Assembly: GCA_045863855.1 (NCBI GenBank)
Contig: BTVV01000055.1
Coordinates: 1-37,794, forward strand
From: Planctomycetota bacterium
GTDB taxonomy: Bacteria; Planctomycetota; SZUA-567; H5-PLA8
DNA: 37,794 nt
Direction: 5' to 3'
Made by a program: the position numbers and the translations under genes. Below the pieces are notes generated by a model. That model saw only the letters and a program-made list of their open reading frames with translations, was not told the DNA's origin and ran no database searches. Of the stretch, positions 5,414-37,794 are shown piece by piece (position 1 is the stretch's first letter; every line of letters starts with the position of its first letter).

Positions 5414-5670
5414 CGCCCCGCGGCATCGCGGGATGCTGCGTCACGTGACGTTGTGTTCCGTGGCGCAGCGTTCCGGACTTCCGCGACGCATCTTGCCGCG
5501 CCGCGGGACGCCGTAGCCGTGTGCTCCGCACGGTTTAAGCCCGCGGCGCAGGATCGTGTAAAAGATCGCTCCGCGCCGGTGCGGGCCGCATCGCGGGATG
5601 CCGAAACCTCGGTAGAAGCGCCGCGTGAAGCTGCGCCGCGGCGTTGCGTGAAACTGCGCGGCGTGACGCA
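5414..5670. repeat. Degenerate pentanucleotide array (YR step every 5 bp); candidate centromere-like site
   Basis: 20 of 21 consecutive 5-bp positions from 5414 to 5515 carry CG/CA/TG/TA; gcatcgcgggatgc occurs twice (~5423, ~5588); lies upstream of parA. Confidence 0.6.
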
Positions 5671-5814
5671 AGCATGCGGATCGCATGGCGCTGGTGAGCG
5701 GGGTGGGGGCATGCGGAATCGCGCTTGGCGTAAAAAATTTTCGCGGAAGGCCTCAAGGCGGGGTCCCGCGCGTCCGATCTCAGTTATGTCGTAGAACGCA
5801 ATTCAGCTCAAGCA

Positions 5815-5866
5815 GGGCAGGGGCCGCGGCGACTGACTCCCCCCCACAGTCGTCCGGCCCCAGCCC
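5815..5866 (+). promoter_or_regulatory. Long GC hairpin with C-rich loop in the parA leader (cis-element or sRNA)
   Basis: ggggccg-c-ggcgactg [actccccccca] cagtcgtc-cggcccc. Confidence 0.45.
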
Positions 5867-5958
5867 AGGCCTCTCCCGGGACGAACGCTCCGCGCAGCAC
5901 GGCCGCACGCCCGCGGCGCGGCGCGGCGGCGGCATGTCCCCGGAACGGAGTTCGAGCC

Positions 5959-6765
5959 ATGCAGACGGTCGCGGTGATCAATCAAAAAGGCGGCACGGGC
6001 AAGACGACGACGGCGGTGAACCTCGCGGCGGCTTTCGCTCAGCGCGGCTTCTGGACGCTGCTGGTGGACCTGGATCCGCAAAGTTCGGCGGCGTACTGCC
6101 TGGGCCTGGATCCGGCGCGCGAAGAGAAGACGCTGGCGAAGGCGATTCTGGAAGACCGCCCGCTGGTGGAGGCGATCCGGCCGAGCGGTATCGCGGGGAT
6201 CGAAGTGGTGCTGGGCGGGCCGGAACTGGCGACGCTGGAACTGCGGATCAAGAATCCGCTGACGGCGGTGCGGGTGCTCGCGCGGCTGCTGGATCCGGTC
6301 AAGCCTGCGTACGATCTGTGCGTGCTGGACGCGCCTCCGTCGCTCTCGCTGATGTTCACGAACGCGCTGACGGCGTCGGACGGTCTGCTGGTGCCGGTGA
6401 CGCCGTCGTTTCTTTCGGCGAAGGGCCTGGAAGCGCTGATGACGACGATCGACGAAGCGCGTGCGGATTTGCAGGTGAATCCGGCGCTGCTGGGGATCGT
6501 GCTGACGATGGTCGACCGGCGGCTGGGCTTGGACAAGGAAGTCGAAGCGAATCTGCGCCAGGTATTCGGCGAGCAGGTGCTGCGGCAGTCGATTCGGCTG
6601 ACGGTGCGCTTGAAGGAAGCGCCGGGTCATTTCCGCTCGATCTTCGCGCACGCTCCGGGTTCGTCGGGTGCGGAAGATTACGACGCGCTGGCGGTGGAGG
6701 TGCTGGGCCGGATGAAGCTGCCCGAACGCGCTCCGGCGCTGGCCGAGCCGGCGGCGGCGGATTGA
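5959..6765 (+). CDS. parA: ParA/Soj family ATPase (no adjacent CTPase ParB)
   Basis: Deviant Walker A KGGTGKTT, DLDPQ, LDAPPSL; RBS ggag. Confidence 0.92.
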   Translation: MQTVAVINQKGGTGKTTTAVNLAAAFAQRGFWTLLVDLDPQSSAAYCLGLDPAREEKTLAKAILEDRPLVEAIRPSGIAGIEVVLGGPELATLELRIKNPLTAVRVLARLLDPVKPAYDLCVLDAPPSLSLMFTNALTASDGLLVPVTPSFLSAKGLEALMTTIDEARADLQVNPALLGIVLTMVDRRLGLDKEVEANLRQVFGEQVLRQSIRLTVRLKEAPGHFRSIFAHAPGSSGAEDYDALAVEVLGRMKLPERAPALAEPAAAD

Positions 6766-6767
6766 GC

Positions 6768-6968
6768 ATGCGCGCACGCTCCACGCTTCGCGCGGCGCTG
6801 CTGTTGGGCGTGCTGCTGCTTTCCGGCTGCGCATACAGCGAGCCGGTTCTGCTGGATTCGATCGGACAACCCGATCCGATGGTGCGGCGCGCGGCGCCGC
6901 CCGTTCAGCGCTCGATGCCCGTACCGCCGCCGGCGGAGCGCGAAGCGTCCGCCGCGTCCACTATTTAA
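6768..6968 (+). CDS. Small lipoprotein (66 aa)
   Basis: MRARSTLRAALLLGVLLLSGC lipobox; ATG 2 nt after the parA stop. Confidence 0.65.
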   Translation: MRARSTLRAALLLGVLLLSGCAYSEPVLLDSIGQPDPMVRRAAPPVQRSMPVPPPAEREASAASTI

Positions 6969-6983
6969 GTAAGGGAGCGATGC

Positions 6984-7655
6984 ATGGTCGACACGAAGGC
7001 TTCAGGTTCGAACGGCGGTACGGTTCCTGCGCCTGCCGGGGACGGTTCGCGCGGTCCGGCTCGGGGCGGCTCGGGGTTGTTCCACTTGTACCGCACGCTG
7101 GGGACGGGCGAAGCGCCTGCGGCCGCGGCGGTTCCGGCGGTTGCGCCATCGCGCGCCGCGCGGCTTTTGCAGGCCGCGCCGGCCGAAGCGCCGACAGGCG
7201 CCGCCGCGCTCGCGGCGCCGAGCGAGGTTCCGGCCGTGGCGGAGACCGACGCCGAAGGCGCCGAAAGTCCGGCTCGTGCGGCTCGCGCGGTACGCCGTGC
7301 CGCGGCGAAGCGCGCGCCGCGCAGCGAAGACGGCGCGGACGTATCGAGCCGCTTGAGCGCCGCGCGCGAGCGGCGGCAGTTCAAGCGCCGGGTGCGGGGC
7401 GAGGATTACGAGCAGGTGACGGTGATCCTGGACCGCGCGCTGTATCTGGAGCTCGACCGGCAGCTTGCGGATCTGTTCGAGTCGGGCGACGGCGTGAAGC
7501 TTTCGCGGAGCATGTTCGTGCGCGCGCTGTTGAAGAGTTTCCTGGCGCAAGAGTCGAAGATCACGCTGGACGGTCTTTTCACGCCGGACCCGCGCAATCC
7601 GGAAGAGCTGGCGGTGATCGAAGCGGCGCTGGTCGAACGTCTGGCCCGCGCTTAA
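6984..7655 (+). CDS. Protein with disordered N-terminus and ribbon-helix-helix-like C-terminus (candidate ParG-type ParA partner)
   Basis: RBS aagggag; QVTVILDRALYLELDRQL...LSRSMFVRALLKSFL has a beta-alpha-alpha RHH pattern. Confidence 0.65.
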   Translation: MVDTKASGSNGGTVPAPAGDGSRGPARGGSGLFHLYRTLGTGEAPAAAAVPAVAPSRAARLLQAAPAEAPTGAAALAAPSEVPAVAETDAEGAESPARAARAVRRAAAKRAPRSEDGADVSSRLSAARERRQFKRRVRGEDYEQVTVILDRALYLELDRQLADLFESGDGVKLSRSMFVRALLKSFLAQESKITLDGLFTPDPRNPEELAVIEAALVERLARA

Positions 7656-7682
7656 GCCCACGGGGGAGGGGAGGGGCCGCGC

Positions 7683-9101: not shown

Positions 9102-9179
9102 GACGTTATAAAAGTAGAACGGCCACAACGGTTCGGCGTTGCGGAGCGCACAATCAAGCGAAGCGGAAAAGTGCGGTGG

Positions 9180-14086: not shown

Positions 14087-15577
14087 TTATTCTCTCAGGC
14101 GGCGCGCTTCTTCGAAGAGGCGGCGGGCCATGTGGGGGCGCTTGCCGGCTTCGGCCATGCTGATGGCGGCTTGAGTGACGTTGAGTTTTTTGGCGAGCTG
14201 GCCCTGGCTGAGGCCGAGTTTGTTGCGGACTTCGCGGAGCAATTCGCCTTCGTGGGGCGGCGGTCCGCCGAATTCGAAGCCCGGAAGGCTGGGCTGGCTG
14301 CCGTCGGGGCGCGGGGCGGGTGAGGGCGGTTCGGCGTCGGGCGAATCGAGCGGCACGGCCGCGGGCAGGCCCTGTTCGGCTCGTCGGGCGAGCGTGTTGG
14401 CGAGGAGTTCCTTGAGGAAGTGGGGCGCTTCGACGATCCAGTTTTCGTCGAGCGGTTCGCCGATGTGGGACGGATCCTTGGGCTTGACGATGAGGCGGCC
14501 CTTGGGCGGCACGCCGTCTTCGGCGGGGCCGGCGGCGGAGTAACGGAATCGTTCGGTCTCGAAGGCCGAGACGTAGCCTTTGTCGACCATGTACTTGATC
14601 GTCTTCTCGAGGCGTTCGAGCTGTTCGTAGGCGGTGTATTCGTCTTCGGCGATGCCGGCCATGCGCAGGAAGGCGCGCGCGCTGTACTTCAACGGCAAAC
14701 ATCCGCTCATGCGGAACTTGATCGGCAGATGGACGCCGAGGGTGAGCGTGAGGGCGTGCGTGTGCGCATTTTCGCGTGCGAGCTGCTTGAGCTGGTAGGT
14801 GTAAAAGTTCTGCTGCGCGCGGGTGCCTTCGGCGGCGATGCTGAAGAGGTGCGGATTGATGCGCAGGTAAATGCGTTCGTTGGTCTCGATGCGGTCGCGC
14901 AGGCGTTCGCCGTCGACGACGACATCTTCCCAATCGGTGGCGCTGGCTTCGTCGAGCAGCAGGCGGACCTTGATGGTCTGGCCGCGGCGGGTGCCGAGGC
15001 GGATTTCCTGAACGATGGTAAGTCCGCACAGGATGCCGACGATCTGGCGCGCTTCGCTGAGGTGTTTGGTGGTGTGGTAGGCCTTGCCGTTGACACGGTT
15101 GGAACGCTTGTAGCCGAGAATGTCGAGATGGCGGTTGATGTCGAAGACGAAGCCCCCGGGCAATCCGCCGGGCGCGGCGTGGGCGCCCAAATCTTCGGCG
15201 GCGATGAAGACGCCGAGGAGATGCTTTAGGCCGGTGGGCCCGAACTGGCGCTTGATGAGCGCCGAGAGTTCGCCTTCCTGCCATTGCGGATCGTCTTCGA
15301 AGAGCGAGACGGTGGTGCGCGCCTGGCTCTCGCGTCCGTTGTACACGATGTACGTACGGTTCTGGGTGCTGCGCACGCGTCCGGCTCGGTCTCGGCGCGG
15401 GCGGCCTTCGTCCATCAGCGCGGCGGTGAGATCGCCGCGGCGGGCCTGCCCGCTGAAGACGGGAATAAGGCCCAGAAAAAGCGCGGTGGAGGGGAGCCGG
15501 AAACTCTCGCCGCCGCTTCGGCTGGCGTGGATCAGCGAGAGCGCGTGATCGGGGCTGAGGGGGTCGCCGGTGCTCAT
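14087..15577 (-). CDS. Rep-like (putative tandem winged-helix) protein with C-terminal XRE helix-turn-helix
   Basis: C-terminal GELLREVRNKLGLSQGQLAKKLNVTQAAISMAEAG is a clear HTH_3; FVFDINRHLDILGYKR and YSARAFLRMAGI...LERLEKTIKYMVDKGYV resemble plasmid initiator WH domains (inference). Confidence 0.7.
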   Translation of the reverse strand: MSTGDPLSPDHALSLIHASRSGGESFRLPSTALFLGLIPVFSGQARRGDLTAALMDEGRPRRDRAGRVRSTQNRTYIVYNGRESQARTTVSLFEDDPQWQEGELSALIKRQFGPTGLKHLLGVFIAAEDLGAHAAPGGLPGGFVFDINRHLDILGYKRSNRVNGKAYHTTKHLSEARQIVGILCGLTIVQEIRLGTRRGQTIKVRLLLDEASATDWEDVVVDGERLRDRIETNERIYLRINPHLFSIAAEGTRAQQNFYTYQLKQLARENAHTHALTLTLGVHLPIKFRMSGCLPLKYSARAFLRMAGIAEDEYTAYEQLERLEKTIKYMVDKGYVSAFETERFRYSAAGPAEDGVPPKGRLIVKPKDPSHIGEPLDENWIVEAPHFLKELLANTLARRAEQGLPAAVPLDSPDAEPPSPAPRPDGSQPSLPGFEFGGPPPHEGELLREVRNKLGLSQGQLAKKLNVTQAAISMAEAGKRPHMARRLFEEARRLRE

Positions 15578-17128: not shown

Positions 17129-17617
17129 ATGGGCGACAAAGTCCGGACCAAGGAAAAAGTGGACAAGAAGACGCGGAAGATCATCGAAGAGCTGATCGTG
17201 GCTTACTGGATGGAGATGGAGACGGTACAGAACTACATCGCGAACTCGATCAACCTGGACGGGATCCGCGCGGAGGAGATCAAGAAGGCGCTGCAGGCGG
17301 ATATCGCGGCGGAGATCGGGCACGCGACGACGCTGGCGCGGCGCGTAAACGTGCTGGGCGGGATCGTACCGGGCAGCTACGACTTCAAGGCTTCGCAGAA
17401 GTACCTGCAGACGCCGAAGGACACGACCGACGTGGTGGCGGTGATCGAAGGCGTGATCGAGGCCGAGAACAGCGCGATCGCGCAGTACAACAAGCTGATC
17501 CAGCTTTGCGACGGCTTCGACTACGCGACGCAGGACATGGTCATTACGCTGCTGGAGAACGAAGAGGCGCACCGCCGCGAGTTCAAGGGCTTCCTGAAGG
17601 AATACAAGAAGTCCTGA
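17129..17617 (+). CDS. Ferritin-like (bacterioferritin/DpsL-like) di-iron protein
   Basis: RBS gaggag; four-helix pattern E..., EIGH, EAE..AIAQY, EEAH. Confidence 0.88.
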   Translation: MGDKVRTKEKVDKKTRKIIEELIVAYWMEMETVQNYIANSINLDGIRAEEIKKALQADIAAEIGHATTLARRVNVLGGIVPGSYDFKASQKYLQTPKDTTDVVAVIEGVIEAENSAIAQYNKLIQLCDGFDYATQDMVITLLENEEAHRREFKGFLKEYKKS

Positions 17618-17645
17618 GCGCTGGAACTTTGAACAAGCAGCCCTT

Positions 17646-17679
17646 AAGCGCGCCTCGCAAGAGGCGCGCTTTTCTTTTT
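17646..17679 (+). terminator. Rho-independent terminator (possibly bidirectional)
   Basis: aagcgcgcctc-GCAA-gaggcgcgctt followed by a T-rich tail, between convergent genes. Confidence 0.85.
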
Positions 17680-18928
17680 AGCGGCCGTTGATGCGCGCGA
17701 TCTCGGTTTTGCAGAACTCGTAGAGCGTGCGCTCGAGGTCGTTCGCGGGCTTGTATTCCTCTAGGAATGCGGCGAGGTGGCGGCGGCCGGTCATGCGCGC
17801 GTTGAGGTCGCCGCGGACGCTGTAGCAGAGGCCCACGTGGGCGGCGGCCTCGAAATCCTTCTTGTCTTTGCTGGCGTTGAGCACGCGCTTGTAGGACTCG
17901 GCGGCGCGGTCGTAGTACTGCAGCGCTTTGGCGCTGTTTTGATTGAGCGTCTGGATTTCCTTGCCGACGCGGAGCACTTCGGGGTTGTTGGCGTCGAAGC
18001 GGCGGATGGGCACGCCGCGCGACGTGCGCGTGATCCGCGTGGCGTTCTTGACGGCGTTTTTCCATTCGGCGCCGAGTTTATCGTATTGCGGCATCAGTTC
18101 GTCTTTGAGCTGCTGCGCGCGCGTGAAGTACGCTTGGCCCAGCTTGCGCAGCAGTTCGGGGTCGGTGCTGCCGACGCCGGCGGCGGCCAGAATCTTGATC
18201 GCGTCCTCGTGCTTACCCTGAGCCAGCAGCGTCGAACCCTGCTCGAGAGGCGAACCCGGCGGGGGCGGGGCGGGGGCCTTGGCGCCGGTGCCGATGGGAT
18301 CCCCGTCGATCGGATCGCCGGCCTTGGCCTTCTGCTTCTGGGCGTAACGAAGCTGCGCTTCGCGGGCGAAGGCGAGCGCCTTAAGCGAATAATCCGTCCC
18401 GCCGGCCTGTTCGGCGACCTGGAACCAGCGCAAGGCGATGGCGTAATCGTCGTTGGTGTTGCTCTGCGCGTAACGCTGGGCGGCCTCGAATTTGGTTTTG
18501 GCGTCGGCCAGCTTTTCGGCATCGGGTCCGCCACCGGGCATCGCCGGCGCGGCCTCTTCGGGCGGATCGGGCTTTTTGGGCGGCGTGGCGGGGGTCGCGG
18601 AAGCGACGCCTGCCGGCTTGGCCCCCCGCTCCTTGCGAATCTGGTCGATGATCTCGATGGTGGCGAACTTACGCGCCCAGTACAGCGCCGAGTTGCATTC
18701 CTGGGCCAGTTCGCTTTCGGACTGCCCGGACGAATCGAGGGCGTCGAGCGCGCGCTCGAGCTTGACCACGCATTCGGCGTATTCCTTGGGGTCGAGCGAA
18801 AGCGCGCTGCCCTTCTTGAGTACCGAAAGCGCTTCGTTTTTGAGCGTCTCGGCCTCACTGGCCGCCCACGCGCTGACCCCGGCCAAGGCGAACGCCGCGA
18901 TTCCCAACCACCCCATGTGCTTCCGCAT
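17678..18928 (-). CDS. Secreted alpha-helical / TPR-like protein
   Basis: Signal peptide; TPR-like helices (LLRKLGQAYF, ALQYYDRAAESY, AAHVGLCYS); RBS ggaagg. Confidence 0.75.
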   Translation of the reverse strand: MRKHMGWLGIAAFALAGVSAWAASEAETLKNEALSVLKKGSALSLDPKEYAECVVKLERALDALDSSGQSESELAQECNSALYWARKFATIEIIDQIRKERGAKPAGVASATPATPPKKPDPPEEAAPAMPGGGPDAEKLADAKTKFEAAQRYAQSNTNDDYAIALRWFQVAEQAGGTDYSLKALAFAREAQLRYAQKQKAKAGDPIDGDPIGTGAKAPAPPPPGSPLEQGSTLLAQGKHEDAIKILAAAGVGSTDPELLRKLGQAYFTRAQQLKDELMPQYDKLGAEWKNAVKNATRITRTSRGVPIRRFDANNPEVLRVGKEIQTLNQNSAKALQYYDRAAESYKRVLNASKDKKDFEAAAHVGLCYSVRGDLNARMTGRRHLAAFLEEYKPANDLERTLYEFCKTEIARINGR

Positions 18929-19154: not shown

Positions 19155-19589
19155 TCAATCGGCAGGGCGTCCGCGCCACTGTTTGACTTGGCTACGGTGC
19201 TTTTTGGATTCGAGGCGGCGTTCTTTGCTGCCACGGCTGGGCTTGGTGGCGCGGCGAACTTTGGGGCGCTTAATCGCCCCGCGCAAAAGCGCTTCCATGC
19301 GCGCGAGCGCCGCGGCGACGTTGCGCGCCTGCTCGCGGTGTTCGCTGCTGACGACCTGCAACTGCCCCTCGGCGTCGATGCGCGGGGCTAGCTGCTCGCG
19401 AATTCGCTCGAGTTCTTCCGCCGAGAAGTGCGCGGCGGCCGCAGCCAAGTCAAGGCGCAGGTCGGCTTTGCTCGATACTTTATTGACGTTCTGCCCGCCG
19501 GGTCCGCCGGAGCGGGCGAAGCGGATGGAGAGCCATCGAGCGGGCAGCACGCGGCTGCCGGAAAGTTGGAGGTCGCGCAGGTCGGCCAT
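19155..19589 (-). CDS. arfB: Alternative ribosome rescue peptidyl-tRNA hydrolase ArfB (YaeJ)
   Basis: ARSGGPGGQNVNKV, REQARN, basic tail RRATKPSRGSKERRLESKK. Confidence 0.95.
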   Translation of the reverse strand: MADLRDLQLSGSRVLPARWLSIRFARSGGPGGQNVNKVSSKADLRLDLAAAAAHFSAEELERIREQLAPRIDAEGQLQVVSSEHREQARNVAAALARMEALLRGAIKRPKVRRATKPSRGSKERRLESKKHRSQVKQWRGRPAD

Positions 19590-19621
19590 GGGGGGACAGT
19601 ACCTGACGGGGGCGGAAAAGG

Positions 19622-19725
19622 GCAAACTGCAAACGGTAAGAACCAAACAATCTGCAAACGGCAAAGAGCAAACCGGGCTACGGCAGGACAGGGCTACGGC
19701 TGCGGGCGGGACGTCCGCGATACCC
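19622..19725. repeat. Degenerate GCAAACN heptamer run followed by a family-B REP hairpin
   Basis: gcaaact gcaaacg ... gcaaacg gcaaaga gcaaacc; then tgcgggcgggacgtccgcgataccc. Confidence 0.6.
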
Positions 19726-19740
19726 ACGGCGAACGGGGGA

Positions 19741-21528
19741 TCAGGTGCCGAGTTCTTCCTGAATCTCGAGCCAGCGGGCTTCGGAGGTGTCGAGGATGCC
19801 CGAGGCTTTTTCGAGTTCGGCTTGGAGGGTAAGCATTTCCTTGGAGTCGGTAATTTCCTGAAGCTGGGCTTCGATCTCTTTCTTGCGCGCGCCGTACTTC
19901 TCGATTTTTCGCTCCAAGGAGCGGGATTCGTTGCGCAGTTCGAACTCGCGGCGGTTGCGGGCGGTCCGTTCTTCTTTGGTTTCCTGGGCGCGCGCGGGTC
20001 CGGGCTTGCCTTTGCCGCCCTGGTTGCGCTCGCGCTCGCCGGCTTCGACTTCCTGCTCGATGCGATACAGGTACGAATCGTACGCGCCGGGGTAGTTGAT
20101 GACGCGGCTGTCGCGGACTTCGATCACCGAAGTGGCGACGCGCTCGACGAAGTGGCGGTCGTGGCTGGTGAAGATGAGCGTGCCTTTGTAGGTCAAGAGC
20201 GCCTGTGCGAAGGCCTCGACGGTCTCGACGTCCAGGTGGTTGCCGGGTTCGTCGAGGACCAGGACGTTGAAGCGTCCCAGCAGCAGCCCGGCGAGGCAGG
20301 CGCGGGCGCGTTCGCCGCCGCTGAGGACACGCACGGGCTTCTTGATGTCGGTGCCGCGGAAAAGGAAGCCGCCGGCCACGTTGAGGACTTCTTGAAGCGT
20401 GCATTCGCCGGCGGTGCAGGCGAGGAGGTACTCTTCGACGGTCTGGTCTTCGGGCAGCGAGGTGTAGACGTGCTGGGCGTAGACGCCGACGTCGCAGCCG
20501 TGGCCCCATTTGACGTTGCCCGAGAGCGGCGGGAGCGAGCCGACGACGGTGCGCAGGAAGGTGGTCTTGCCCTGCCCGTTGTCGCCGACAATGACGGCGC
20601 GCTGTCCGTGTTCGATGTCGAGCGTGATTTCCTGGGCGATGATGCGGCCGGGATAGCCCATGGCGAGGTTGTGGCAGCGCAGAGCATTGCCGTAGCGCGG
20701 TTCGACGCGCGGGACGCGGATGCGCGCGGTGGCTTCGTCGGCGTCGATCTCGATCAGTTCGAGTCGTTCGAGCTGTTTGGCTTTGCTGCGGGCCTGGCTG
20801 GCGGTGTTGGCGCCGGCGCGGTTCTTGGCGATGAAGCGTTCGAGCTGGCGGCGTTTGGACTGGGTCGCGGCGTTGGTCCGTTCGTCCTGGGCGCGTCGTT
20901 CGGCCTCGTAGGCGAGAAAGGCATCGACCTTGCCGGGGTAAAGGGTCAGTTCGCCGCGCGAAAGGGAGAGCGTATCGTCGCAGGTATCGTTCAAGAAGGT
21001 ACGGTCGTGGCTGACGATCAGCGCACCGCCTTTGAAGCTCTTGAGAAAGTGCTCCAGGAGGATCTGCGTGCGCAGGTCGAGGAAGTTGGTCGGTTCGTCG
21101 AGAACGAGCAAGTTGGGATCGTGGAGCAGCAGGGCGGCGAGCTTGACGCGGGTCTGCCAGCCCCCGGAAAGCGCGCGGACGGGCCCGTTGAGGTACTCGT
21201 TTTTGATCTCGAAACGGCCGGCGACTTCGCCGCACTTCCATTCGGGTTGCTCGCTGTCGCGGACCAGGAACTGGAGGACGGTTTCGCCTTCCAGAAACGG
21301 ATCGTGCTGGCGCAAGTAGCCCAAGCGTAATTGCGGGCTGCGGACGACGATGCCGGAGTCGATCTCTTCCTCGCCGAGCAGGACGCGGCAGAGCGTGGAC
21401 TTGCCCGCGCCGTTGCGGCCGATGAGGCCCACTTTACGGTCGTCGGTGAGCGCACAGGACGCGTGATCGATGAGCACGCGTTCGCCGTAGCACTTCAAAC
21501 CTTCCTGAAGCTGGAGCAAAATGGCCAT
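19741..21528 (-). CDS. ABC-F family ribosome-associated ATPase
   Basis: Two NBDs (GRNGAGKST/LSGGW/LDEPTN; GDNGQGKTT/LSGGE/LDEPGN), PtIM-like linker, C-terminal coiled coil, no TMs. Confidence 0.95.
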   Translation of the reverse strand: MAILLQLQEGLKCYGERVLIDHASCALTDDRKVGLIGRNGAGKSTLCRVLLGEEEIDSGIVVRSPQLRLGYLRQHDPFLEGETVLQFLVRDSEQPEWKCGEVAGRFEIKNEYLNGPVRALSGGWQTRVKLAALLLHDPNLLVLDEPTNFLDLRTQILLEHFLKSFKGGALIVSHDRTFLNDTCDDTLSLSRGELTLYPGKVDAFLAYEAERRAQDERTNAATQSKRRQLERFIAKNRAGANTASQARSKAKQLERLELIEIDADEATARIRVPRVEPRYGNALRCHNLAMGYPGRIIAQEITLDIEHGQRAVIVGDNGQGKTTFLRTVVGSLPPLSGNVKWGHGCDVGVYAQHVYTSLPEDQTVEEYLLACTAGECTLQEVLNVAGGFLFRGTDIKKPVRVLSGGERARACLAGLLLGRFNVLVLDEPGNHLDVETVEAFAQALLTYKGTLIFTSHDRHFVERVATSVIEVRDSRVINYPGAYDSYLYRIEQEVEAGERERNQGGKGKPGPARAQETKEERTARNRREFELRNESRSLERKIEKYGARKKEIEAQLQEITDSKEMLTLQAELEKASGILDTSEARWLEIQEELGT

Positions 21529-26234: not shown

Positions 26235-27254
26235 GTGCGCTTGATCGTCACCGGAGGCGCGGGATTCATCGGGTCGAGCTTCGTGCGGCTGGCGCTGGCC
26301 GAAGGCCATGCCGTCACGGTGCTCGACGCGCTGACTTACTGCGGCAACCTCGCCAACCTCGATGCGGTCAAGGATCACGCGGCTTACCGCTTCGTAAAGG
26401 GCGAGATCGGCGATAAGGCGCTCTGGCCGAAGCTGCTCGCCGAACCCTGCGACGCGGTGGTGAACTTCGCCGCGGAATCGCACGTCGACCGCAGCATCCT
26501 GGATGCGTCGCCGTTCGTGCTCACGAACGTCGTCGGCACGCAGGTGATCCTCGATGCCTTGCGCGCGGTGCATGCGGCGCAGCCCCAGCGCGCGCTGCGC
26601 TTCCTGCAAGTCAGCACCGACGAAGTTTACGGCAGCGCCGACGACGGAAAGCCGTTCACCGAGCAGACGCCGTTGAAGCCCAACAGCCCGTACGCGGCGA
26701 GCAAGTCCGCCGCCGATCTGCTGGTCCGCGCGTACCACCACACCTTCGGGCTCGATACGGTCATCACGCGCTGCAGCAACAATTACGGGCCGTACCAGTT
26801 CCCCGAAAAGCTGATCCCGCTTTTCACGACCAACCTGTTCGAAGGCAAGCCCGTGCCCGTGTACGGCGACGGGAAACAGATTCGCGACTGGATCCACTGC
26901 GACGATCATAGCCGCGGCGTCCTGGCGGCCTTGGTCCGCGGGAAAAGCGGCGAGGTCTATAACCTCGGCGGCGGAAACGCCTGCGAGAATCTGCGCATCA
27001 CGCGCCTGTTGCTCCACTACACCGGCCGCGACGATACGTTCATCCGCTACGTTCAGGACCGCCCGGGGCACGATCGCGTGTACCTGATCGACCACACCAA
27101 GGCCACTCGGGAACTGGGCTGGAGTCCGCGTGTCGCGTTCGACACCGGCTTGGCCGAAACGGTGGCGTGGTACCGCGCGCACGAATCGTGGTGGCGCGAG
27201 ATCAAGAGCGGCGCATATCTCACGTATTACGAACGCCAGTACGGGGCGCGGTAA
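26235..27254 (+). CDS. rfbB: dTDP-glucose 4,6-dehydratase
   Basis: TGGAGFIGS, AAESHVDRSI, STDEVYG, YAASK, DRPGHD; ggagg then GTG26235. Confidence 0.95.
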   Translation: MRLIVTGGAGFIGSSFVRLALAEGHAVTVLDALTYCGNLANLDAVKDHAAYRFVKGEIGDKALWPKLLAEPCDAVVNFAAESHVDRSILDASPFVLTNVVGTQVILDALRAVHAAQPQRALRFLQVSTDEVYGSADDGKPFTEQTPLKPNSPYAASKSAADLLVRAYHHTFGLDTVITRCSNNYGPYQFPEKLIPLFTTNLFEGKPVPVYGDGKQIRDWIHCDDHSRGVLAALVRGKSGEVYNLGGGNACENLRITRLLLHYTGRDDTFIRYVQDRPGHDRVYLIDHTKATRELGWSPRVAFDTGLAETVAWYRAHESWWREIKSGAYLTYYERQYGAR

Positions 27255-28161: not shown

Positions 28162-29223
28162 TTACGGGTTCTTCACGACCTGCGCGCCCTTGCAGGCATC
28201 GCAGCGTTTGGTGGGCGCTTGGCCGCGGCCCATGCAGGAGCGGCAGACTTCGTAGCGGTCGCCGAAATTAAGATACCCGCGCGGCCGGCCGCGGCGGCAG
28301 CCGTCGCAATCCTGCCAGCCTCCGCCGCCGGTGCCTTCGCATGCCGTGCACTCGCGGAAGCCCGGAGGAATCACCGCGCCGCCCGCGGTGCGCGGGCGCT
28401 GCGGATCGACCTTGCCGCTGGCCGCGCAGCGCGCGCACGGCAGCACCGGCATATCGCCTTTGCCCAGGCAGCGCGGACAGGTGGCCCAACGTTCGCCCAG
28501 ATTGATCTGTCCTTTGCGCCCCGAACTGCGGCATTGCTGGCAGTCGAACCAGCGCGCGTAGCCGGTCGCGTTGCAGGCTCCGCACGGCTGCAACTGCGCG
28601 GAGGCCGAAGCTACCGCGCCGGCGGGCTCCAGCGGATTCGGTGGCGAGATCAGATCCATTTCCGGCTTGGCCACCGCTTCCGCGTCGGCCGGAGCCACCC
28701 AGCGTTCGCCAACTTTGACGAGCCCTTCGGCTTTCATCTTCACTTCGAGCGGCACCCACGCGCCAAGGTAGCGCACATGGCCCAAGGCTTCGTGTGCGGC
28801 GCGCAGGTCCGGATCGAGCGCCACCGCACGTTCGTACGCTTGCTGGGCCTGCTTCTCGAGCTTCTGTTCGGTGGCGTACGCGCCCAACTCGTGCCAGGCC
28901 TCGGCTTTCGCCTTGGGGTCGGCGGCTTCGAGCGCCGCCCAGCGTTCGTCGAAGATCGTGCGAGCGGATTTGGTCTTGCGGATCTCCTGCACTTCACGCT
29001 TGGGCACGCGCGTCTGCCCGAACCGGCCTTTCACGACGTAAGAATCGGCGTCTTCGCTGACGACTTCGCCTTCCAGTTCGCGCCCGTCGTGGAAGACGAT
29101 CAGATCCGCGCGCACCGAGCCTGCGCAGAGGCCGGCCACCAGCAGGAGGATCCAGACCCATCGCTTGGCCGAACGTCCCAACCGTGCACCGCCTCTCGAA
29201 GCCGATACCTCAGTGTAACGCAT
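28162..29223 (-). CDS. Exported protein with a TPR-like region and two tandem DnaJ-type zinc-finger domains (start uncertain)
   Basis: Hydrophobic signal; DLIVFHDGRELEG domain; eight CxxCxxxG-like motifs. Confidence 0.8.
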   Translation of the reverse strand: MRYTEVSASRGGARLGRSAKRWVWILLLVAGLCAGSVRADLIVFHDGRELEGEVVSEDADSYVVKGRFGQTRVPKREVQEIRKTKSARTIFDERWAALEAADPKAKAEAWHELGAYATEQKLEKQAQQAYERAVALDPDLRAAHEALGHVRYLGAWVPLEVKMKAEGLVKVGERWVAPADAEAVAKPEMDLISPPNPLEPAGAVASASAQLQPCGACNATGYARWFDCQQCRSSGRKGQINLGERWATCPRCLGKGDMPVLPCARCAASGKVDPQRPRTAGGAVIPPGFRECTACEGTGGGGWQDCDGCRRGRPRGYLNFGDRYEVCRSCMGRGQAPTKRCDACKGAQVVKNP

Positions 29224-29357: not shown

Positions 29358-29385
29358 CTATAACATAAGGGTTATTATCGGACGT
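29358..29385 (-). other. dif-like XerC/XerD recombination site
   Basis: Minus strand ACGTCCGATAA-TAACCC-TTATGTTATAG: 11-6-11 layout, XerD arm 9/11 to E. coli TTATGTTAAAT, intergenic. Confidence 0.8.
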
Positions 29386-29430: not shown

Positions 29431-30573
29431 TTAGGCGCTCGGCGCGGGCCAGTCGGGAAAGACAAACCGCCCGTCTTGGCTGATGACCTGGCCGTCCACT
29501 TCGATCGTCCCGCCTTTGCGCAGATCGCAGACCATGTCCCAGTGCAGGCCGGATTCGTTGCTGTTGCCCGTTTCGGGATAACCGGCGCCGACGGCGGCGT
29601 GAAAGGTGCCGCCGATCTTTTCGTCGAAGAGCGTGTTTTTGCTGAAACGCTGGATCTGATAATTCGTGCCGATGGCGATCTCGCCGAGGTTGCGCGCGCC
29701 TTCGTCTTGGTCCAGCATCTCCAGCAGGAAGCGCTCGTTCTTCTCGGCCTTCGCCTGCACCACGCGGCCGCGTTCGAAGACCAGTTCGACGCCTTCGACC
29801 TCGCGCCCGTGATGCACCGCGGGGAAGCTGAAGCGCACGCGCCCGTTGACGCCGCCGTGCGGCGCCTTCAGGTTCGGCCCGGTGAAGACTTCGCCGTCCG
29901 GAAAGTTCTCGTGCCCCGAACAGTTGATCCAGCGCATCCCGTCGACCTCGACGGTCAGGTCGGTCCCGTTCGCCGCGCGGAAACGCACGACTTTCTTCCC
30001 GTTCAGGAAATCGGCGACGCGCTGCTGCCGGACGTGAATCTCTTTCCAGGCCGCGACCGGATCGGGCAGGTGCAGCAAGCCCGCCTTGAAGACAAAGTCT
30101 TCGTATTCGCGCAGGCTCATTTCGGCGTCCTGCGCGCTGGCTTGCGTCGGAAAGAGCGTGCCGCACCACTTCAGTTCGCCGCGCGCCGCGCGTTCCATGA
30201 AGATCTTGAAGACCGGCTTGCGCGCGGAACTGGCCTGGCCCTGGCGTTTGGGGTCGATGTTGCTGAGCGCCTTGGTGTTCGCGTCGGCCCACAGCCCGAT
30301 GGATACGTCGATGGTCTTCACTTCTTCCACGTCGAGGGGCGAGACGAAGGCCAGTTGTTCGGCGCTGGCGTTCTTGAGGAAGATCTCTTCGCAGTCCTCG
30401 GGCGTGCAGCGGACGCGAACATGCGCGCCGGCTTGCACGAGCTTCTCGTAGAGGGCCACCAGGAGCGGTTCGGCCACCGTCGGCCCGCTGAGGCGGACGA
30501 CCTGGCCGGGCTTTACCGCGGTGCTGTATTCGACGAGCACCGCCGCGAGTTTTTCCAAGCGTGGGTCTTGCAT
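29431..30573 (-). CDS. M29 family aminopeptidase (AmpS/AmpT-like)
   Basis: NFPDGEVFT, LGEIAIG, NTLFDEKIGGTFHAAVG, SGLHWDMV. Confidence 0.93.
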   Translation of the reverse strand: MQDPRLEKLAAVLVEYSTAVKPGQVVRLSGPTVAEPLLVALYEKLVQAGAHVRVRCTPEDCEEIFLKNASAEQLAFVSPLDVEEVKTIDVSIGLWADANTKALSNIDPKRQGQASSARKPVFKIFMERAARGELKWCGTLFPTQASAQDAEMSLREYEDFVFKAGLLHLPDPVAAWKEIHVRQQRVADFLNGKKVVRFRAANGTDLTVEVDGMRWINCSGHENFPDGEVFTGPNLKAPHGGVNGRVRFSFPAVHHGREVEGVELVFERGRVVQAKAEKNERFLLEMLDQDEGARNLGEIAIGTNYQIQRFSKNTLFDEKIGGTFHAAVGAGYPETGNSNESGLHWDMVCDLRKGGTIEVDGQVISQDGRFVFPDWPAPSA

Positions 30574-31777: not shown

Positions 31778-31802
31778 GTGCGTCTTCTCCGGTTCAGGCC
31801 GC

Positions 31803-32684: not shown

Positions 32685-34025
32685 TTACGAACCGCGGGCG
32701 GCCTGGCGCCCCACGCCCCAGTATTGGAAGCCCAGTTCCGCCATGTCGGCGGGATCGTACAGGTTGCGCCCGTCGAAGAGCGCGGGCGTTTTGAGCCGCG
32801 CTTTCACGCGTTCCCAGTCCGGCGCGCGGAATTCGTTCCACTCGGTGACGAGCAGCAGCGCCGCGGCGCCGTCGAGCGCATCGTACATGTCCTTCGCGAA
32901 GTAGACGGAAGCGCCGAGCCGGGCCTTCACGTTGGGCATCGCTTCCGGATCGAAGGCGCGCACCTTGACGCCCGCGGCGAGCAGCTTCTCGATCACCGCC
33001 AGCGCCGGCGCTTCGCGGATATCGTCGGTGCGAGGCTTGAAGGCCAAGCCCCACAGCGCGACGGTCTGGCCCTTGGGATCGGCGCCCAGATGGCGGAGCA
33101 CCTTCGGGACCAGGATCGTCTTCTGCGTGTCGTTCACCGCTTCGGCGGCTTCGACGATGGACGCTTGCAAGCCCAGCCCCCGCGCCGTCGCGACCAGCGC
33201 GCGGGTGTCTTTGGGAAAGCACGAACCGCCGTAGCCCAAGCCCGGAAAAAGGAACGCCTTCCCGATGCGCGCGTCGGCGGTGATGCCGCGGCGGACGAGT
33301 TCCACATCGGCGCCGGTGGCTTCGCACAAGCGCGCGACTTCGTTCATGAAGCTGATCTTCGTCGCCAGGAAGCAGTTGGCCGCGTACTTGGTCAGTTCGG
33401 CGCTGGCCGGATCCATGCGCAGGATCGGCGCGCCCGAGCGGCAGAACGGTTCGTGGAGCGACTCCAGCGCCTTGTACGCGGCATCGTCGTCGGTCCCGAT
33501 GACCACGCGGTCGGGCTTCTGGAAGTCCTCCACCGCCGCGCCTTCCTTAAGGAATTCGGGGTTGCTGGCCACCGCGAACGGTTGCGCGTAGGTTTCCGCC
33601 GCGGCCGCGCGCACCTTTAGGTGCGTGCCCACCGGCACGGTGCTCTTGCAGACGAACAGCGGCGGCTTGGCCTTGCCCGCGGCATCCTGGGCCGAGAGTT
33701 CGCGCCCCAATTGGCGCACCGCGGCGAGGACGTATTTCACGTCGGCCGAACCGTCTTCGGCGGGCGGCGTAGGCAGGCAAAGGAAGAAGATCCGCGCGTG
33801 CTGCACGGCTTCGGGATAGGACGCGGTGAACCGCAGCCGCCCTTCGCGCGTGTTGCGCGCGAAGAGATCCGACAGCCCGGGCTCGTAAATCGTGAGTTCG
33901 CCCTTGCGCAGCCGTTCGACTTTAGCCGCGTCGATGTCCAGGCAGACGACCTCATGCCCGGACTCGGCGAAACAGGTGCCCGCCACCAGTCCGACGTAAC
34001 CGGTGCCGACGATGGTCAAACGCAT
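32685..34025 (-). CDS. ugd: UDP-glucose 6-dehydrogenase
   Basis: GTGYVGL, KSTVPVGT, SNPEFLKEG, GYGGSCFPKD, GLAFKPRTDDIRE. Confidence 0.95.
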   Translation of the reverse strand: MRLTIVGTGYVGLVAGTCFAESGHEVVCLDIDAAKVERLRKGELTIYEPGLSDLFARNTREGRLRFTASYPEAVQHARIFFLCLPTPPAEDGSADVKYVLAAVRQLGRELSAQDAAGKAKPPLFVCKSTVPVGTHLKVRAAAAETYAQPFAVASNPEFLKEGAAVEDFQKPDRVVIGTDDDAAYKALESLHEPFCRSGAPILRMDPASAELTKYAANCFLATKISFMNEVARLCEATGADVELVRRGITADARIGKAFLFPGLGYGGSCFPKDTRALVATARGLGLQASIVEAAEAVNDTQKTILVPKVLRHLGADPKGQTVALWGLAFKPRTDDIREAPALAVIEKLLAAGVKVRAFDPEAMPNVKARLGASVYFAKDMYDALDGAAALLLVTEWNEFRAPDWERVKARLKTPALFDGRNLYDPADMAELGFQYWGVGRQAARGS

Positions 34026-34294: not shown

Positions 34295-35209
34295 ATGCCT
34301 ACGACCGAATCTTCCCGCATGTTCCGCGCCGCCGAAGGGCGCCGTGTCGAGCCCGTACGCCGCTTGCGCAGCCGTGCGCGCGAGCCGCGAGCGCGCGACG
34401 ACTACCGCGGACGATACGCGCCGGCGCCCGCCGCCAGCCCCTGGCCGCTGGTGCTGGCCGGCGGAGCGTTTTTAGTCGCGCTGGCGGCCGCGGCGTTCAT
34501 CGTGCTGAAATCGACGAACGCGCCCGCCGCTCCGCAGCAGCCGATGGCGCCTGCGGCGCCCGTGGCCGCCGCCCCCGCGCCGCAGGCCGCTCCGGCAGTC
34601 CCCGCCGTAACGCCGGCGGCGCCCGCGCCTCTCGCCACGCCCGCGCCGCAACCGGCCCCGGCTGTGGTTCAACCTGCGCCGGCCGTCACGCGCCGCGAAC
34701 CCTCGCTGCACGCGCGGCTCTTCCCCAGCTTCGGGCTCTCGCACGTCAGCCAGTTCGAGACCGGCGCGCAAGGCCATCTGCTTCAAGCGCAGGACGTATG
34801 GCGCATGCGCGTCCAGGCGCTCGACCAGGGCCCCAAGCAGTACACGCTTACCTTGGCCGTCGATGAAGTGCTCAAAGGCGAAGCGCAGCCCAAGGACCGC
34901 ACGCTGATCCTCGGCTGCGCCGATCCCAAGCGCGAATTCGGGCTCACGCTGGGCCGCACCGAAGGCGACCGCTTCGTGGTCTTCCTCACCGCCGATAACC
35001 GCTTCTTCATGCTCACGGCCGACGATTACGCCAAGGTTTCGGGAAGCGCCGCGCCGGCCGAGGTGGAACCGTCCGCCGAAGCGCCGCCCGCGCCCGTCGC
35101 CGATCCCATCGACGGACCGGCCGCCGAGACGGCCGCACCGGCCGTGCCGGAAGCCGCCGCTGCGCCGGAGGTCAACGAGCCGGCCGCGGCAGGCAACCAG
35201 CAGCGGTGA
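34295..35209 (+). CDS. Hypothetical single-TM protein with Pro/Ala-rich linkers
   Basis: RBS aggag; TM PWPLVLAGGAFLVALAAAAFIVL; small beta domain between low-complexity tracts. Confidence 0.7.
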   Translation: MPTTESSRMFRAAEGRRVEPVRRLRSRAREPRARDDYRGRYAPAPAASPWPLVLAGGAFLVALAAAAFIVLKSTNAPAAPQQPMAPAAPVAAAPAPQAAPAVPAVTPAAPAPLATPAPQPAPAVVQPAPAVTRREPSLHARLFPSFGLSHVSQFETGAQGHLLQAQDVWRMRVQALDQGPKQYTLTLAVDEVLKGEAQPKDRTLILGCADPKREFGLTLGRTEGDRFVVFLTADNRFFMLTADDYAKVSGSAAPAEVEPSAEAPPAPVADPIDGPAAETAAPAVPEAAAAPEVNEPAAAGNQQR

Positions 35210-35267
35210 ACGGACAACGACCCTTCCCTCTTCGTAAGCGCTAAAGGCTTATTAAAATCTCTCCTGC

Positions 35268-37793
35268 TCACACTTCGCCGCGCCCGTCGGTCTTGCCGTC
35301 GCTGATGTAGTTCGCGATCAGATCGTAGGTCAGCGCCACGCGCGCGTGCGTGCGGCCGTGGCGGGCTTTGAGGACTTCGATATCCAGCGCCACCGAGCGC
35401 AGCGCGCTGGGCGCGCTCCAGCGCCCCGCTTGCATCAGTTCGGCCGAATCGACCGCCGTCGCGCCGGGTTCCAGCAGCGCCGCGCCCAGCTTGGCCGCGC
35501 CGTTGCGCCGCGAACGGGCCTTCCCGCCGCTCGCCGTGCCCAGCACCGGCCCGCCCGTCCAGGCCGAACGCCCGCCCAGCGGCGGGACGCTGTAGCCGCC
35601 GAACGAACCCGCGCCGTTGCCGCCTTCGTCGAACGGCAACGCTTCCGCCGCCGCCTGATGATGGTTGTACAGCCCGTAAACGGTCGTCGCGTCCTGCTCG
35701 AGGTCGCCGGCTTCGCGCAACTGCCAGAGCCGCGGGCGATCGGTGCGGTTGGCCGTCTCGCTGACGCGGTTGAGCTGCGCCGCCGCGATCACCGGCACGC
35801 CCGTCTCTTGCGCCAGCGCCTGCAGCGCGCGCGAAACGTAGCCCACCTCGCGCTGGCGCGTATCCATCGCGCGCCCTTTGGAGCGGTCGGGCCGGATCTG
35901 CTGGATGTAATCGACCAGCACCGCGCCCAGCGGGCCGTCGGACGAGATCGCTTTTGCCGCGCGGCACAACTCGCCCGCCGTCAGCGCGCGGTCGACGATA
36001 AAGAGCCGCTTCTCGATCTGCTGCGCGTCCAGCCAGCGCAGCGAAGCCTGGGCCTGCTCGAGCAGTTCCCGCGCTTCGGGATGCGCCGGATCGACCTCGC
36101 CGCGCAGCGCGTCCTCGACCTCGCGCAGCGCGTAGCGCCGCGTCACGCGGCTGACCAACTGGCTCATGAGCTGTTCGCGCGGGCCGTCGTAGCTGAAATA
36201 AACGAAGCGCCGCTCGGGGTAGCGCTTCAGCCAGTGCACGACCAAGTTAAGCAGAAACGTAGTCTTGCCGTGGCTGGGGCGCGCGGCGACGAGCGTGATG
36301 CGGCCGGGGTGAATCGCCGCGGCTTCGTCGAGCTTCCGGAAGGGCGTCTCCAGAAAATCGGGCCGTTCCAGCACCGCCGCGCGGTACGCCGCGAGACTCA
36401 CCGGCGCCAGCACGTCCTTGCCCGCGTCGCTGTCCCGCAGCGCCGCGGCCCGTTCGAGCCCCTCGCGCAACGAAGCTTCGACGCGCGTAAGCGCCTCCGC
36501 ATCCGGCGCGGCGCTGCCGCGCGGGCCCAGTTCGGCTTGAACGTCCAGCGCCGCGCGCTGCAGCAGTTCCGCGCGCCGCCGCTGCGCCGCCTGTTTGCGA
36601 AACGGCTCCAACGCCGCCGCCAGCGCGGCTTCGTCGAGCGCCAGCTCCGCCGCCAGTATCCGCAGCAACTCGCCCAAAAACAGCGCCCGCGCCGGCCGCG
36701 CCGCTTCGCGTTCGACGATCTCGGCCAGTTCCGCCCAGACCGCCGAACCGTTCGAAACGCTTAAGCGCGCGCGCTCCGGCCCCAGCAGCAGCGCCGCGCG
36801 AAACTCCGCCTCGCTCTGCGTCCGCTCCGCCAGCAGCGCTTCCCACACCGCCAGGCCGTGCCGGGTCAGCACCTCGTCCGGGTCTTTGCAGCCCAGCTCC
36901 TCGGGAATCCGCAGCACGCGCGGGAAGAACGTGCCCGCCTCGGCGAGCCGCTCCAGCGTCTCCAGCGTGCCGCGCGCGCCCGCGCCCGGCGCGCCGTCCG
37001 TTCCGCGGTCGGCGTCGAAGCACAGAATCAGTTCCCGCACACCGGCCGCCTGCAGGGCTTCGACCTGCGCGCGGTTGAGCCGATTGGTTCCGGTGGCGAC
37101 CAGTTGGGCCGAAAGCGGATTTTGGATTTTCGGTTTTGAACTTTCGATGGAGGGAGCGCCCTGTCCTTCGCCCAACTCTGCCCACGCTTGCCCCAGCGCG
37201 GCGTCGAGGAACCCTTCCACCACCACCACCGGCTTGCGGCGGTCGACCGAACGCAGGAAGGCCGGCGCGTCGAGGGTCAGGCCCTTCGGGTAGCGGTATT
37301 TCGGCGCGTCGCCGGGCAGTTCGTCCGCCGGAAGCGTCGCGCGCGCGATCAGGCTTTGCAGTTCGGGGTAGGGAATCGCGAGCGTATAGATCCGCGCGCC
37401 GGCGCCGTTGCGCCGGTCGAAGGCCGGATCGAGAAACGCCAGGCTGCGCAAGTCCTCCTCGTCCGCTCCGCCCTGCAGCAGAAACGCGCGCGTCTCGGCC
37501 GCGGGCGGGAGGTAGGCGAGCCCCATCGCGCGCGCGAGAGGCTCGCCGTACCCGCGCGCCGCCAGCAGAGCGACGGTGCGGGCCGCTTCGCTCTGGGGGT
37601 GACACGCTTCCGCCCACAACCGTTCGCCGGCCCACGTCCAAAACCGCTCGCACAGCCCCGCCCGGCGTTCGCGCCGCTTCCAGCTTTCCGCCGCGGTCTG
37701 GGGATCGACGCCGCGCCGCGTCAGCTCCACCCCGGCCCGCTCGGCCAGCGTGCGCAGAATCTCCGGCTCGGGAATCCCCTCCAGCGTGCGCAG
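35268..37793 (-). CDS. DnaG-type primase (TOPRIM) fused to a DnaB-type helicase; 5' end truncated by the window edge
   Basis: Frame open to the edge (LEGIPEPEILRTLAERAGVEL, DnaG ZBD tail-like); PKY, VEGFLD, CFDAD, KDPDE; ARPSHGKT, VDYIQ, AQLNR, LREAGDLEQDA, KARHG. Confidence 0.9.
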   Translation of the reverse strand: MRTLEGIPEPEILRTLAERAGVELTRRGVDPQTAAESWKRRERRAGLCERFWTWAGERLWAEACHPQSEAARTVALLAARGYGEPLARAMGLAYLPPAAETRAFLLQGGADEEDLRSLAFLDPAFDRRNGAGARIYTLAIPYPELQSLIARATLPADELPGDAPKYRYPKGLTLDAPAFLRSVDRRKPVVVVEGFLDAALGQAWAELGEGQGAPSIESSKPKIQNPLSAQLVATGTNRLNRAQVEALQAAGVRELILCFDADRGTDGAPGAGARGTLETLERLAEAGTFFPRVLRIPEELGCKDPDEVLTRHGLAVWEALLAERTQSEAEFRAALLLGPERARLSVSNGSAVWAELAEIVEREAARPARALFLGELLRILAAELALDEAALAAALEPFRKQAAQRRRAELLQRAALDVQAELGPRGSAAPDAEALTRVEASLREGLERAAALRDSDAGKDVLAPVSLAAYRAAVLERPDFLETPFRKLDEAAAIHPGRITLVAARPSHGKTTFLLNLVVHWLKRYPERRFVYFSYDGPREQLMSQLVSRVTRRYALREVEDALRGEVDPAHPEARELLEQAQASLRWLDAQQIEKRLFIVDRALTAGELCRAAKAISSDGPLGAVLVDYIQQIRPDRSKGRAMDTRQREVGYVSRALQALAQETGVPVIAAAQLNRVSETANRTDRPRLWQLREAGDLEQDATTVYGLYNHHQAAAEALPFDEGGNGAGSFGGYSVPPLGGRSAWTGGPVLGTASGGKARSRRNGAAKLGAALLEPGATAVDSAELMQAGRWSAPSALRSVALDIEVLKARHGRTHARVALTYDLIANYISDGKTDGRGEV
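37115..37149. repeat. Five AT-rich heptamers inside the primase-helicase ORF
   Basis: gcggatt ttggatt ttcggtt ttgaact ttcgatg (encodes ...IESSKPKIQNP...). Confidence 0.6.
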
Positions 37794-37794
37794 G

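Follow-up and report, generated by a model that had tools for sequence, protein, structure and literature searches.

The stretch of DNA analysed here, referred to below as the window, comprises 37,794 nucleotides from an uncultured Planctomycetota bacterium (GenBank assembly GCA_045863855.1, contig BTVV01000055.1) and represents the entire contig C55 of the genome that we call G000 (6.93 Mb, 287 contigs, 93.9% complete). Dispersed amongst other genes it carries four of plasmid type, encoding a Rep-like initiator, a primase-helicase fusion, a ParA ATPase and a small partner of ParA (together, the module), as well as a dif site. The original prediction, made from the letters alone, had listed these elements and placed them around a probable chromosome terminus. 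For comparison we used a family of 17 genomes in 10 genera (G000 plus 16 relatives), in which G004 belongs to the same genus as G000, the genomes bearing the module (G000 and G004-G007) fall in genera g1 and g5, and G008 belongs to genus g6. The features that matter most are the following:

5423..5601, no strand: four 14-bp palindromes GCRTCVCGBGAYGC (0-1 mismatch), candidate centromere/operator of the ribbon-helix-helix (RHH) partner
5959..6765, plus strand: ParA ATPase, type Ib-like (AAA_31, E 5e-44, matching from residue 1), with no N-terminal extension or helix-turn-helix (HTH)
6984..7655, plus strand: ParA partner, with a variable Ala/Pro-rich N-terminus and a conserved C-terminus that is probably RHH
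14087..15577, minus strand: Rep-like protein of 496 aa, with a core of RctB/pi/RepE type and a C-terminal XRE HTH (HTH_3)
29040..29041, no strand: point at which both ends of contig G004:C6 join, in-frame inside one window gene (evidence of circularity)
29358..29385, minus strand: replicon dif, a 28-mer of 11-6-11 layout
35268..37794, minus strand: Zn-finger/Toprim/DnaB-type primase-helicase fusion (Toprim and DnaB_C), which runs off the right edge and has its 5' end on contig C218

The Rep-like winged-helix/XRE protein (14.1-15.6 kb), the dif-like site (29.36 kb) and the DnaG-DnaB fusion (from 35.3 kb to the edge) all lay where they had been predicted. The predicted host-like base composition was also found, with a GC (guanine plus cytosine) content of 66.1% in the window against 63.3-66.3% in the ten largest contigs of G000, and no integrase, transposase or relaxase was detected amongst the 33 open reading frames (ORFs), hand-picked from 172, that were scanned with Pfam. 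Since canonical dnaA (C24), dnaB (C2), dnaG (C49), parB (C2) and xerC/xerD-like genes (C65, C158) were located on other contigs of G000, a check that the original prediction had itself proposed, the set in the window is an additional one.

The relatives reveal what kind of molecule carries this set. Contig C6 of G004 (50,803 bp) aligns with the window in the same order, in eight blocks of 86-95% identity, as a circular permutation of it; every module gene of G004 is on C6, the other contigs of this genome measuring 3.26, 2.01, 1.00, 0.72 and 0.18 Mb, and 16 and 2.5 kb. The 9 kb of the G004 circle beyond the window map to G000 contigs C278 and C218, the latter overlapping the window end by 16 nt, and encode a CN hydrolase, a deiminase, a thioredoxin-like protein, a DUF748 protein, a kinase-receiver protein, an amidohydrolase, rfbA and the 5' end of the primase-helicase fusion. 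In G005 all module genes sit on C4 (80,784 bp), next to contigs of 2.76, 2.60 and 2.01 Mb, and 9.6 and 1.6 kb; homologues of nearly all window genes are present on C4, in shuffled order and at about 65-80% DNA identity. Both assemblies have Mb-sized contigs, yet the module set stays on separate contigs of 51 and 81 kb. Moreover a public contig of 50,944 bp (50,803 + 141) contains members of the Rep and partner clusters, and its length would fit an untrimmed circle. We consider it likely, with good confidence, that the window represents about 80% (37.8 kb) of a circular secondary replicon of roughly 47-51 kb, a mini-chromid descended from a plasmid with the four-gene module. Amongst the options that the original prediction had left open, the core of a chromid or secondary replicon is the one favoured by the circle in G004, the module and the second dif. 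As to synteny in relatives, the set is on one small contig in G004 and G005, and occurs whole in five of the 17 genomes.

The Rep-like protein was modelled with AlphaFold2 from 60 sequences (mean predicted local distance difference test score, pLDDT, 67). The Foldseek check suggested by the original prediction returned RctB (5ubf) as top match (E 2e-3, probability 1.0), and a VIA structure comparison aligned the model with RctB (Z 10.6, root-mean-square deviation 4.8, 225 residues aligned) and with pi (Z 8.2, 5.1 and 209, respectively), the sole chains with Z of at least 8 amongst 48,161. With RctB domains 2-3, RepE and pi as its best structural matches, the protein is predicted from the model to have the fold of iteron-binding initiators. 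A profile search of 1.84 billion proteins yielded 100 relatives; of 30 that were scanned, 24 carried an XRE-type HTH match at the C-terminus and none matched a Rep family, the distant homologues being unnamed with Pfam matches to the HTH only. The replication module escapes the Pfam Rep models. Against 72,556 plasmid records the Rep core gave a single match at E<=0.01, on a Criblamydia plasmid (26.6% identity over 95% of the core, E 2e-16); no Chlamydiaceae plasmid matched at that threshold. A role of Rep as a replacement for DnaA was considered and discarded, as dnaA was found in 16 of the 17 family genomes. Two side observations concern this gene. At 15050-15140 (residues about 147-185) the model has a short beta-hairpin between two helices, recalling, in a likeness drawn from the model only, a hairpin reported as required in the chlamydial initiator Pgp2 (PMC11895440). 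In G007:C170 (L069:2527-4150), direct and inverted repeats of 100-140 nt resembling repetitive extragenic palindromic elements cluster downstream of rep.

The primase-helicase fusion measures 932 aa in G004 and is full-length in five of the 17 genomes, that of G005 being read in three pieces, possibly through assembly error. In all five aligned fusions the zinc-finger cysteines, the Toprim acidic motifs and the helicase motifs are kept; the position that we take to be the catalytic glutamate is aspartate in these five and glutamate in distant cassettes. Pattern-based scans for further fusions found only the four known family loci. The evidence that the dispersed genes belong together came from distant relatives. 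Specifically the Criblamydia sequanensis plasmid NZ_LK031773 (89.5 kb) holds parA, a 166-aa gene, a Zn-ribbon/Toprim/DnaB_C fusion and Rep in a single run; its fusion aligns with ours at 25% over 612 aa (E 8e-46), with common RPSHGKTT and FSY motifs (an unusual Walker A context), and its 166-aa gene showed no significant similarity to our partner. A scan with 13 Rep relatives gave four more loci (L158-L161), of which the two that were read, L159 and L160, each have fusion, parA and Rep in one run; between parA and Rep lies a 160-aa gene ending in an RHH-like pattern in L159, and about 270 bp with no ORF above the cut-off in L160. Since all three distant loci read are contiguous cassettes, the dispersed ParA, partner, fusion and Rep form one module, and the functional linkage that the original prediction had offered as a hypothesis gains its support here. 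The four loci are AT-rich and sit in bins labelled Hyphomicrobiales, Roseivirgaceae and Latescibacterota, labels that may be binning errors; their sequences suggest a widespread unannotated plasmid class.

The partition locus includes two further features:

5728..5870 (approximate), plus strand: conserved non-coding leader of the par operon, aligned in G000, G004-G007 and before the partner gene of G008
6768..6968, plus strand: 66-aa ORF between parA and the partner gene, with a lipoprotein-like signal as read from the sequence

Orthologues of ParA (79-98%) were found in four of the 16 relatives, all in genera g1 and g5, and other best matches did not exceed 39%. The matches of 38-39% in outgroup genera were rejected as module ParA: two of the four were read, one of which adjoins a ParB-like ORF, and neither has a partner-like gene. 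The partner, present in six of the 17 family genomes and with only 15 database homologues, had no Pfam match, and its model gave no Foldseek matches; its C-terminus is modelled as strand-helix-helix and aligns weakly with the RHH proteins TraM, NikR, PutA and Arc. The palindrome has five matches in the window against 1.9 expected (at least five in 3 of 100 shuffles), and upstream of parA there are four copies in each of G005, G006 and G007 and two exact copies in G004; as the pattern was derived from these regions, the copy counts are partly circular. In G008, which was outside the derivation, one exact palindrome lies directly 5' of an orphan partner gene. As read from sequence, the locus would have the repeated sites beside the operon that are expected of type Ib partition. 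The predicted combination of an orphan ParA, an RHH protein and a repeat array was in this way confirmed for ParA and weakly supported for RHH, the array amounting to four degenerate palindromes.

The dif pattern matches 16 of the 17 family genomes, with two matches for a reversed-pattern control. The window site shares its XerC-side arm with the chromosomal dif on C7 and differs from it in the spacer and the XerD-side end, and G004-G007 have two exact sites each, one with the chromosomal spacer type and one accompanied by the module or its cargo. With an 11-6-11 layout kept in kin, and with xerC/xerD-like genes in five of five genomes, it qualifies on sequence features as a candidate XerCD dif site. 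G000 has four dif sites in all (C7, C55, C164 and C250). The last two, G000:C164:6817-6837 (L132) and G000:C250:177-197 (L133), match the dif-like pattern exactly, on contigs of low GC (60% and 56%); they lie beside an SNF2-type helicase and an XRE gene, with a HipA-like gene near, and are probably Xer-mobilised defence islands or other small elements. In the outgroup genome G002 there are also two exact sites, G002:C6:1453 and G002:C117:56399; the second adjoins pyrF/truD, has no module genes amongst eight ORFs scanned, and could be contamination (4%) or a second replicon.

The genes carried by the circle bear on its status. Sole-copy tests were made one by one on five cargo genes, rfbA and the following four:

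4236..5315, minus strand: LPG-synthase-TM (flippase-like), matched just once per genome in G000 and G004-G007 at E<=1e-15, with matches in 17 of 17 family genomes
26238..27254, plus strand: rfbB-like dTDP-glucose 4,6-dehydratase, with no other copy at orthologue level in G000 or G004 (next best 35%; five genomes searched)
29431..30573, minus strand: M29 aminopeptidase, matched just once each in G000 and G004 at E<=1e-20, with no match in two of the five genomes searched
32685..34025, minus strand: ugd, UDP-glucose dehydrogenase, matched just once each in G000 and G004 at E<=1e-40 (five genomes searched)

For rfbA the sole strong match is on the circle in G000, G004 and G005, and matches occur in 12 of the 16 relatives; ugd and rfbB have 64-77% orthologues in three other genera searched. 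From draft contigs we infer that the ugd, rfb and flippase-like genes are chromosomal in other genera. No tRNA was found on G004:C6, and G005:C4 has a single doubtful ARAGORN call (tRNA-Val, L057:6807-6891) that may be false; its anticodon, AAC, is unusual for bacteria. Amongst 46 of the 142 ORFs of G005:C4 that were scanned there was no relaxase or integrase, and there were one Mutator transposase and one restriction-modification gene. By the sequence criteria quoted in PMC6090056 the replicon would be a mini-chromid: it is a separate molecule by circular permutation in G004 (not closed in G000, G005 or g5), its replication and maintenance appear to be of plasmid type (modelled Rep fold, plasmid homologues, ParA and partner), its GC is chromosome-like, and ugd, rfbB, rfbA and the flippase-like gene have their only identified copies on it. 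The alternative that it is an ordinary dispensable resident plasmid with acquired host genes, none of them needed for growth, would agree with the small size, the near absence of tRNA genes, the variation of cargo between species, and the curability of the 65-kb rhamnose 'biofilm plasmid' of Phaeobacter inhibens (PMC5030684). We regard it as unlikely, since other genera also conserve the four envelope genes, each of which occurs once, on the circle, the set has been kept in two species despite full reshuffling, and the GC is that of the host.

The distribution of the module across the family followed three patterns. The whole module with a second dif occurs in the five genomes of g1 and g5 already named. 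In G008 the partner is retained, and Rep, a ParA orthologue and the fusion were not found; since this genome is 93% complete, the three absences count as 'not found'. Its contig C100 (neighbourhood scan of 68 of 113 ORFs, G000:C7 included) carries a single dif; ugd ends some 60 bp from it and is followed by rfbA, an amidohydrolase gene and rfbB, and the flippase-like gene and the partner lie at a distance of 50 kb, so that all four envelope genes sit on a terminus contig there; it also holds homologues of genes found round the chromosomal dif of G000 (DegT at 68%, glutamate dehydrogenase, an epimerase and a glycosyltransferase). On this contig the partner gene follows directly on the par leader and one perfect palindrome, parA being absent; this points to a clean loss of parA, and thus to a derived, merged state. 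The proposal of a plasmid integrated at dif and then shuffled does not suit G000, but it fits the sister-genus genome G008. Finally Rep alone, at 50-65% identity, is present in 10 genomes of six genera; Rep was detected in none of 45 genomes of the class outside the family. Its neighbourhoods in five outgroup genomes (74 of 146 ORFs scanned) contain ATP synthase a, RarA, TrmB, TrpE, TrmD and flagellar genes, with shared synteny of only a few genes; the outgroup genomes are all drafts, so a large second replicon there is possible.

This conservation without the rest of the module means that Rep may have another job, and a second alternative takes it up: the circle would be real, with the Rep-fold protein now a DNA-binding regulator carried as cargo, and the primase-helicase or some other factor would start replication, perhaps in one direction only. 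In its favour, 14 of the 16 relatives have a conserved Rep, its gene stands amongst chromosome-type genes (atpB, rarA, trmB, trpE, trmD) in all five outgroup neighbourhoods, the protein has an XRE HTH, and no iteron array was found near rep in five genomes. We nevertheless find this reading quite improbable: the distant homologues reside in rep-par-primase/helicase cassettes, one of them on a finished plasmid, G008 lacks exactly rep, parA and fusion while other cargo is kept, and no second Rep family appeared amongst the ORFs covered by partial scans of the circle.

As for strand composition, the cumulative GC skew of the window peaks at 27-28 kb, 1.5-2.5 kb from dif, as the original prediction would have it for a terminus. 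In the G004 circle the skew is above zero for about 33 kb and level or below zero for the remaining 17 kb or so; its minimum lies between genes, in a comparatively AT-rich stretch where C278 meets C218. No repeats were found there, and no replication origin could be located; nor was a DnaA-box cluster found on the circle, which has a single match to the box consensus, upstream of ugd. The skew was rejected as a marker of a terminus, since G005:C4 keeps one sign across dif and the sign also switches between the halves of G000 contigs C9, C19, C20 and C71. The window was likewise discarded as the terminus of the DnaA replicon, because the dif with the family-typical spacer is on G000:C7, G004:C2 and G005:C3 and the window closes as a circle in G004. 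A terminus with a domesticated or once-integrated plasmid toolkit, the G004 circle being an assembly artefact or rare excision product, is very unlikely indeed: the sign change near dif, the opposite skews of rep and primase-helicase (both on the minus strand) and the G008 terminus with the same cargo speak for it, whereas the separate chromosomal dif, on Mb contigs in G004 and G005, the G004 junction inside a gene, the lack of any long near-identical repeat shared by G004:C6 and other G000 contigs, and the skews of G005:C4 and of the other contigs speak against it.

Several results nonetheless weigh against a circular mini-chromid of plasmid descent. Circularity was seen in G004 alone; G005:C4 has no terminal overlap, and the gene cut at its end does not resume at its start. 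About 1.1 kb of the circle is unassembled in G000, where contigs of four public runs (two of which may be the source of this DNA) tile the gap at similar depth and none spans it. In genus g5 the module is split over 2-4 contigs, several cargo matches are on other, larger contigs, and no circle was seen. The Foldseek E-values of Rep are above 0.001, from a model with a mean pLDDT of 67, and the missing iteron array counts here too. The RHH call for the partner goes back to Z of at most 3.6, from a monomer model with pLDDT 61.5 and with many RHH chains amongst the top 50 matches. Lastly the 10 genomes with Rep alone yielded no fusion, ParA orthologue or partner, and the chromosomal Rep of outgroup genera leaves room for more than one order of events.

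If the replicon is a mini-chromid, it could work as follows. Rep, with its RctB/pi fold, would bind and open the origin and load the replicon's own primase-helicase, so that initiation would be independent of the DnaA-directed loading of host DnaB/DnaG. RHH dimers on the palindromes upstream of parA would form centromere and autorepressor, ParA would segregate the copies, and host XerCD would resolve dimers at the replicon dif. Long residence may have scattered the four module genes and brought GC to host level, while conserved envelope-sugar genes (ugd, rfbA, rfbB and the flippase-like gene) moved onto the circle, making its loss costly. In G008 a merger of replicon and chromosome terminus would have been followed by the loss of parA, rep and primase-helicase. 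The wide occurrence of the cassette speaks for plasmid descent of the machinery more than for a pure chromosome split. More tentatively, and as a possibility we would not yet back, the family may record a replicon moving between plasmid, mini-chromosome and chromosome, in which an ancestral plasmid of an undescribed four-gene class lives on as an essential mini-chromosome of 50-80 kb that exchanges genes with the terminus through dif, and the RctB-like initiator was domesticated alone in six other genera, on the DnaA chromosome, as a second origin or regulator.

Two repeats and a gene pair of the window touch none of these subjects directly. At 1-132, the contig start, is a 66-nt tandem pair (98%) that is not present at the corresponding G004 site and is the likely cause of the assembly break. 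An inverted similarity of 37 nt (73%) at 17572-17786, at the 3' ends of convergent ferritin-like and TPR genes, is probably a coding coincidence. At 19155-21528, on the minus strand, a gene with an ArfB-like peptidyl-tRNA hydrolase domain and an ABC-F gene are both of translation-rescue type.

These results would describe a chromid-like replicon at about 0.7% of the host genome size; compositional convergence and dif-type resolution have mainly been described for large replicons (PMC13342612; bioRxiv 2024.04.05.588136). The module, which a chlamydial plasmid and unrelated metagenome bins also carry, could be used to recognise such replicons, and the free, merged and Rep-only states side by side in one family make the plasmid-versus-schism origin of chromids testable. 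Were the chromosomal state the older one, the circle would have arisen by splitting from the main chromosome, an origin of second chromosomes for which a 2018 review reports no evidence in bacteria (PMC6090056). In practice, dropping a 50 kb circle at binning strips envelope genes from bins of this lineage.

Amongst known systems, the closest likeness is to the chlamydial core Pgp5(ParA)-Pgp6-Pgp1(DnaB)-Pgp2(Rep), which the Criblamydia plasmid NZ_LK031773 resembles in having parA, a small gene, the fusion and Rep. Pgp2 has as structural neighbours pi, RepE and RctB, the same three as Rep here (PMC11895440), and chlamydial plasmids combine long-term vertical inheritance with frequent chromosomal integration (PMC7846284); the supplementary gene-family tables of the latter may already group the Criblamydia genes with Pgp1/Pgp2. 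In contrast to that core, with its contiguous genes and Pgp7/8 integrases, the replicon has its genes scattered round the circle, a host-type dif and envelope-gene cargo, and no integrase amongst the scanned ORFs; since the Rep core had no match on any Chlamydiaceae plasmid, Rep can at most be called a possible orthologue of Pgp2.

Vibrio chromosome 2, an RctB chromid, is similar in that RctB domains 2-3 are the best match of Rep and in having its own dif beside a chromosomal one, and its fusion with the main chromosome is known (PMC6090056). The replicon differs from it by an identity of only ~9-11%, a far smaller size, its own primase-helicase, an iteron array not found, and an RHH-type partner. 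The partner used by Vibrio chromosome 2 is of ParB type. Roseobacter 65-kb RepA-I rhamnose 'biofilm plasmids' share the size range and the rml/rfb polysaccharide cargo (PMC5030684), but have another initiator family, are curable and keep a clustered rhamnose operon; the rfbA, rfbB and ugd of our replicon are single-copy genes that lie apart from one another.

Type Ib partition consists of ParA and an RHH centromere-binding protein. The locus here matches it in a short ParA, a small partner with a flexible N-terminus and a probable C-terminal RHH, and repeats upstream of the operon, and departs from it in a partner outside Pfam families and in 14-bp palindromic sites of irregular spacing. A literature search that left supplements uncovered and most subscription papers out of reach returned no account of a Planctomycetota chromid or of the four-gene module. 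Chromids, RctB-like initiators and type Ib partition are already known; the novelty of this replicon is in its size and lineage, in the coexistence of three states, and in a four-gene module that lacks annotation.

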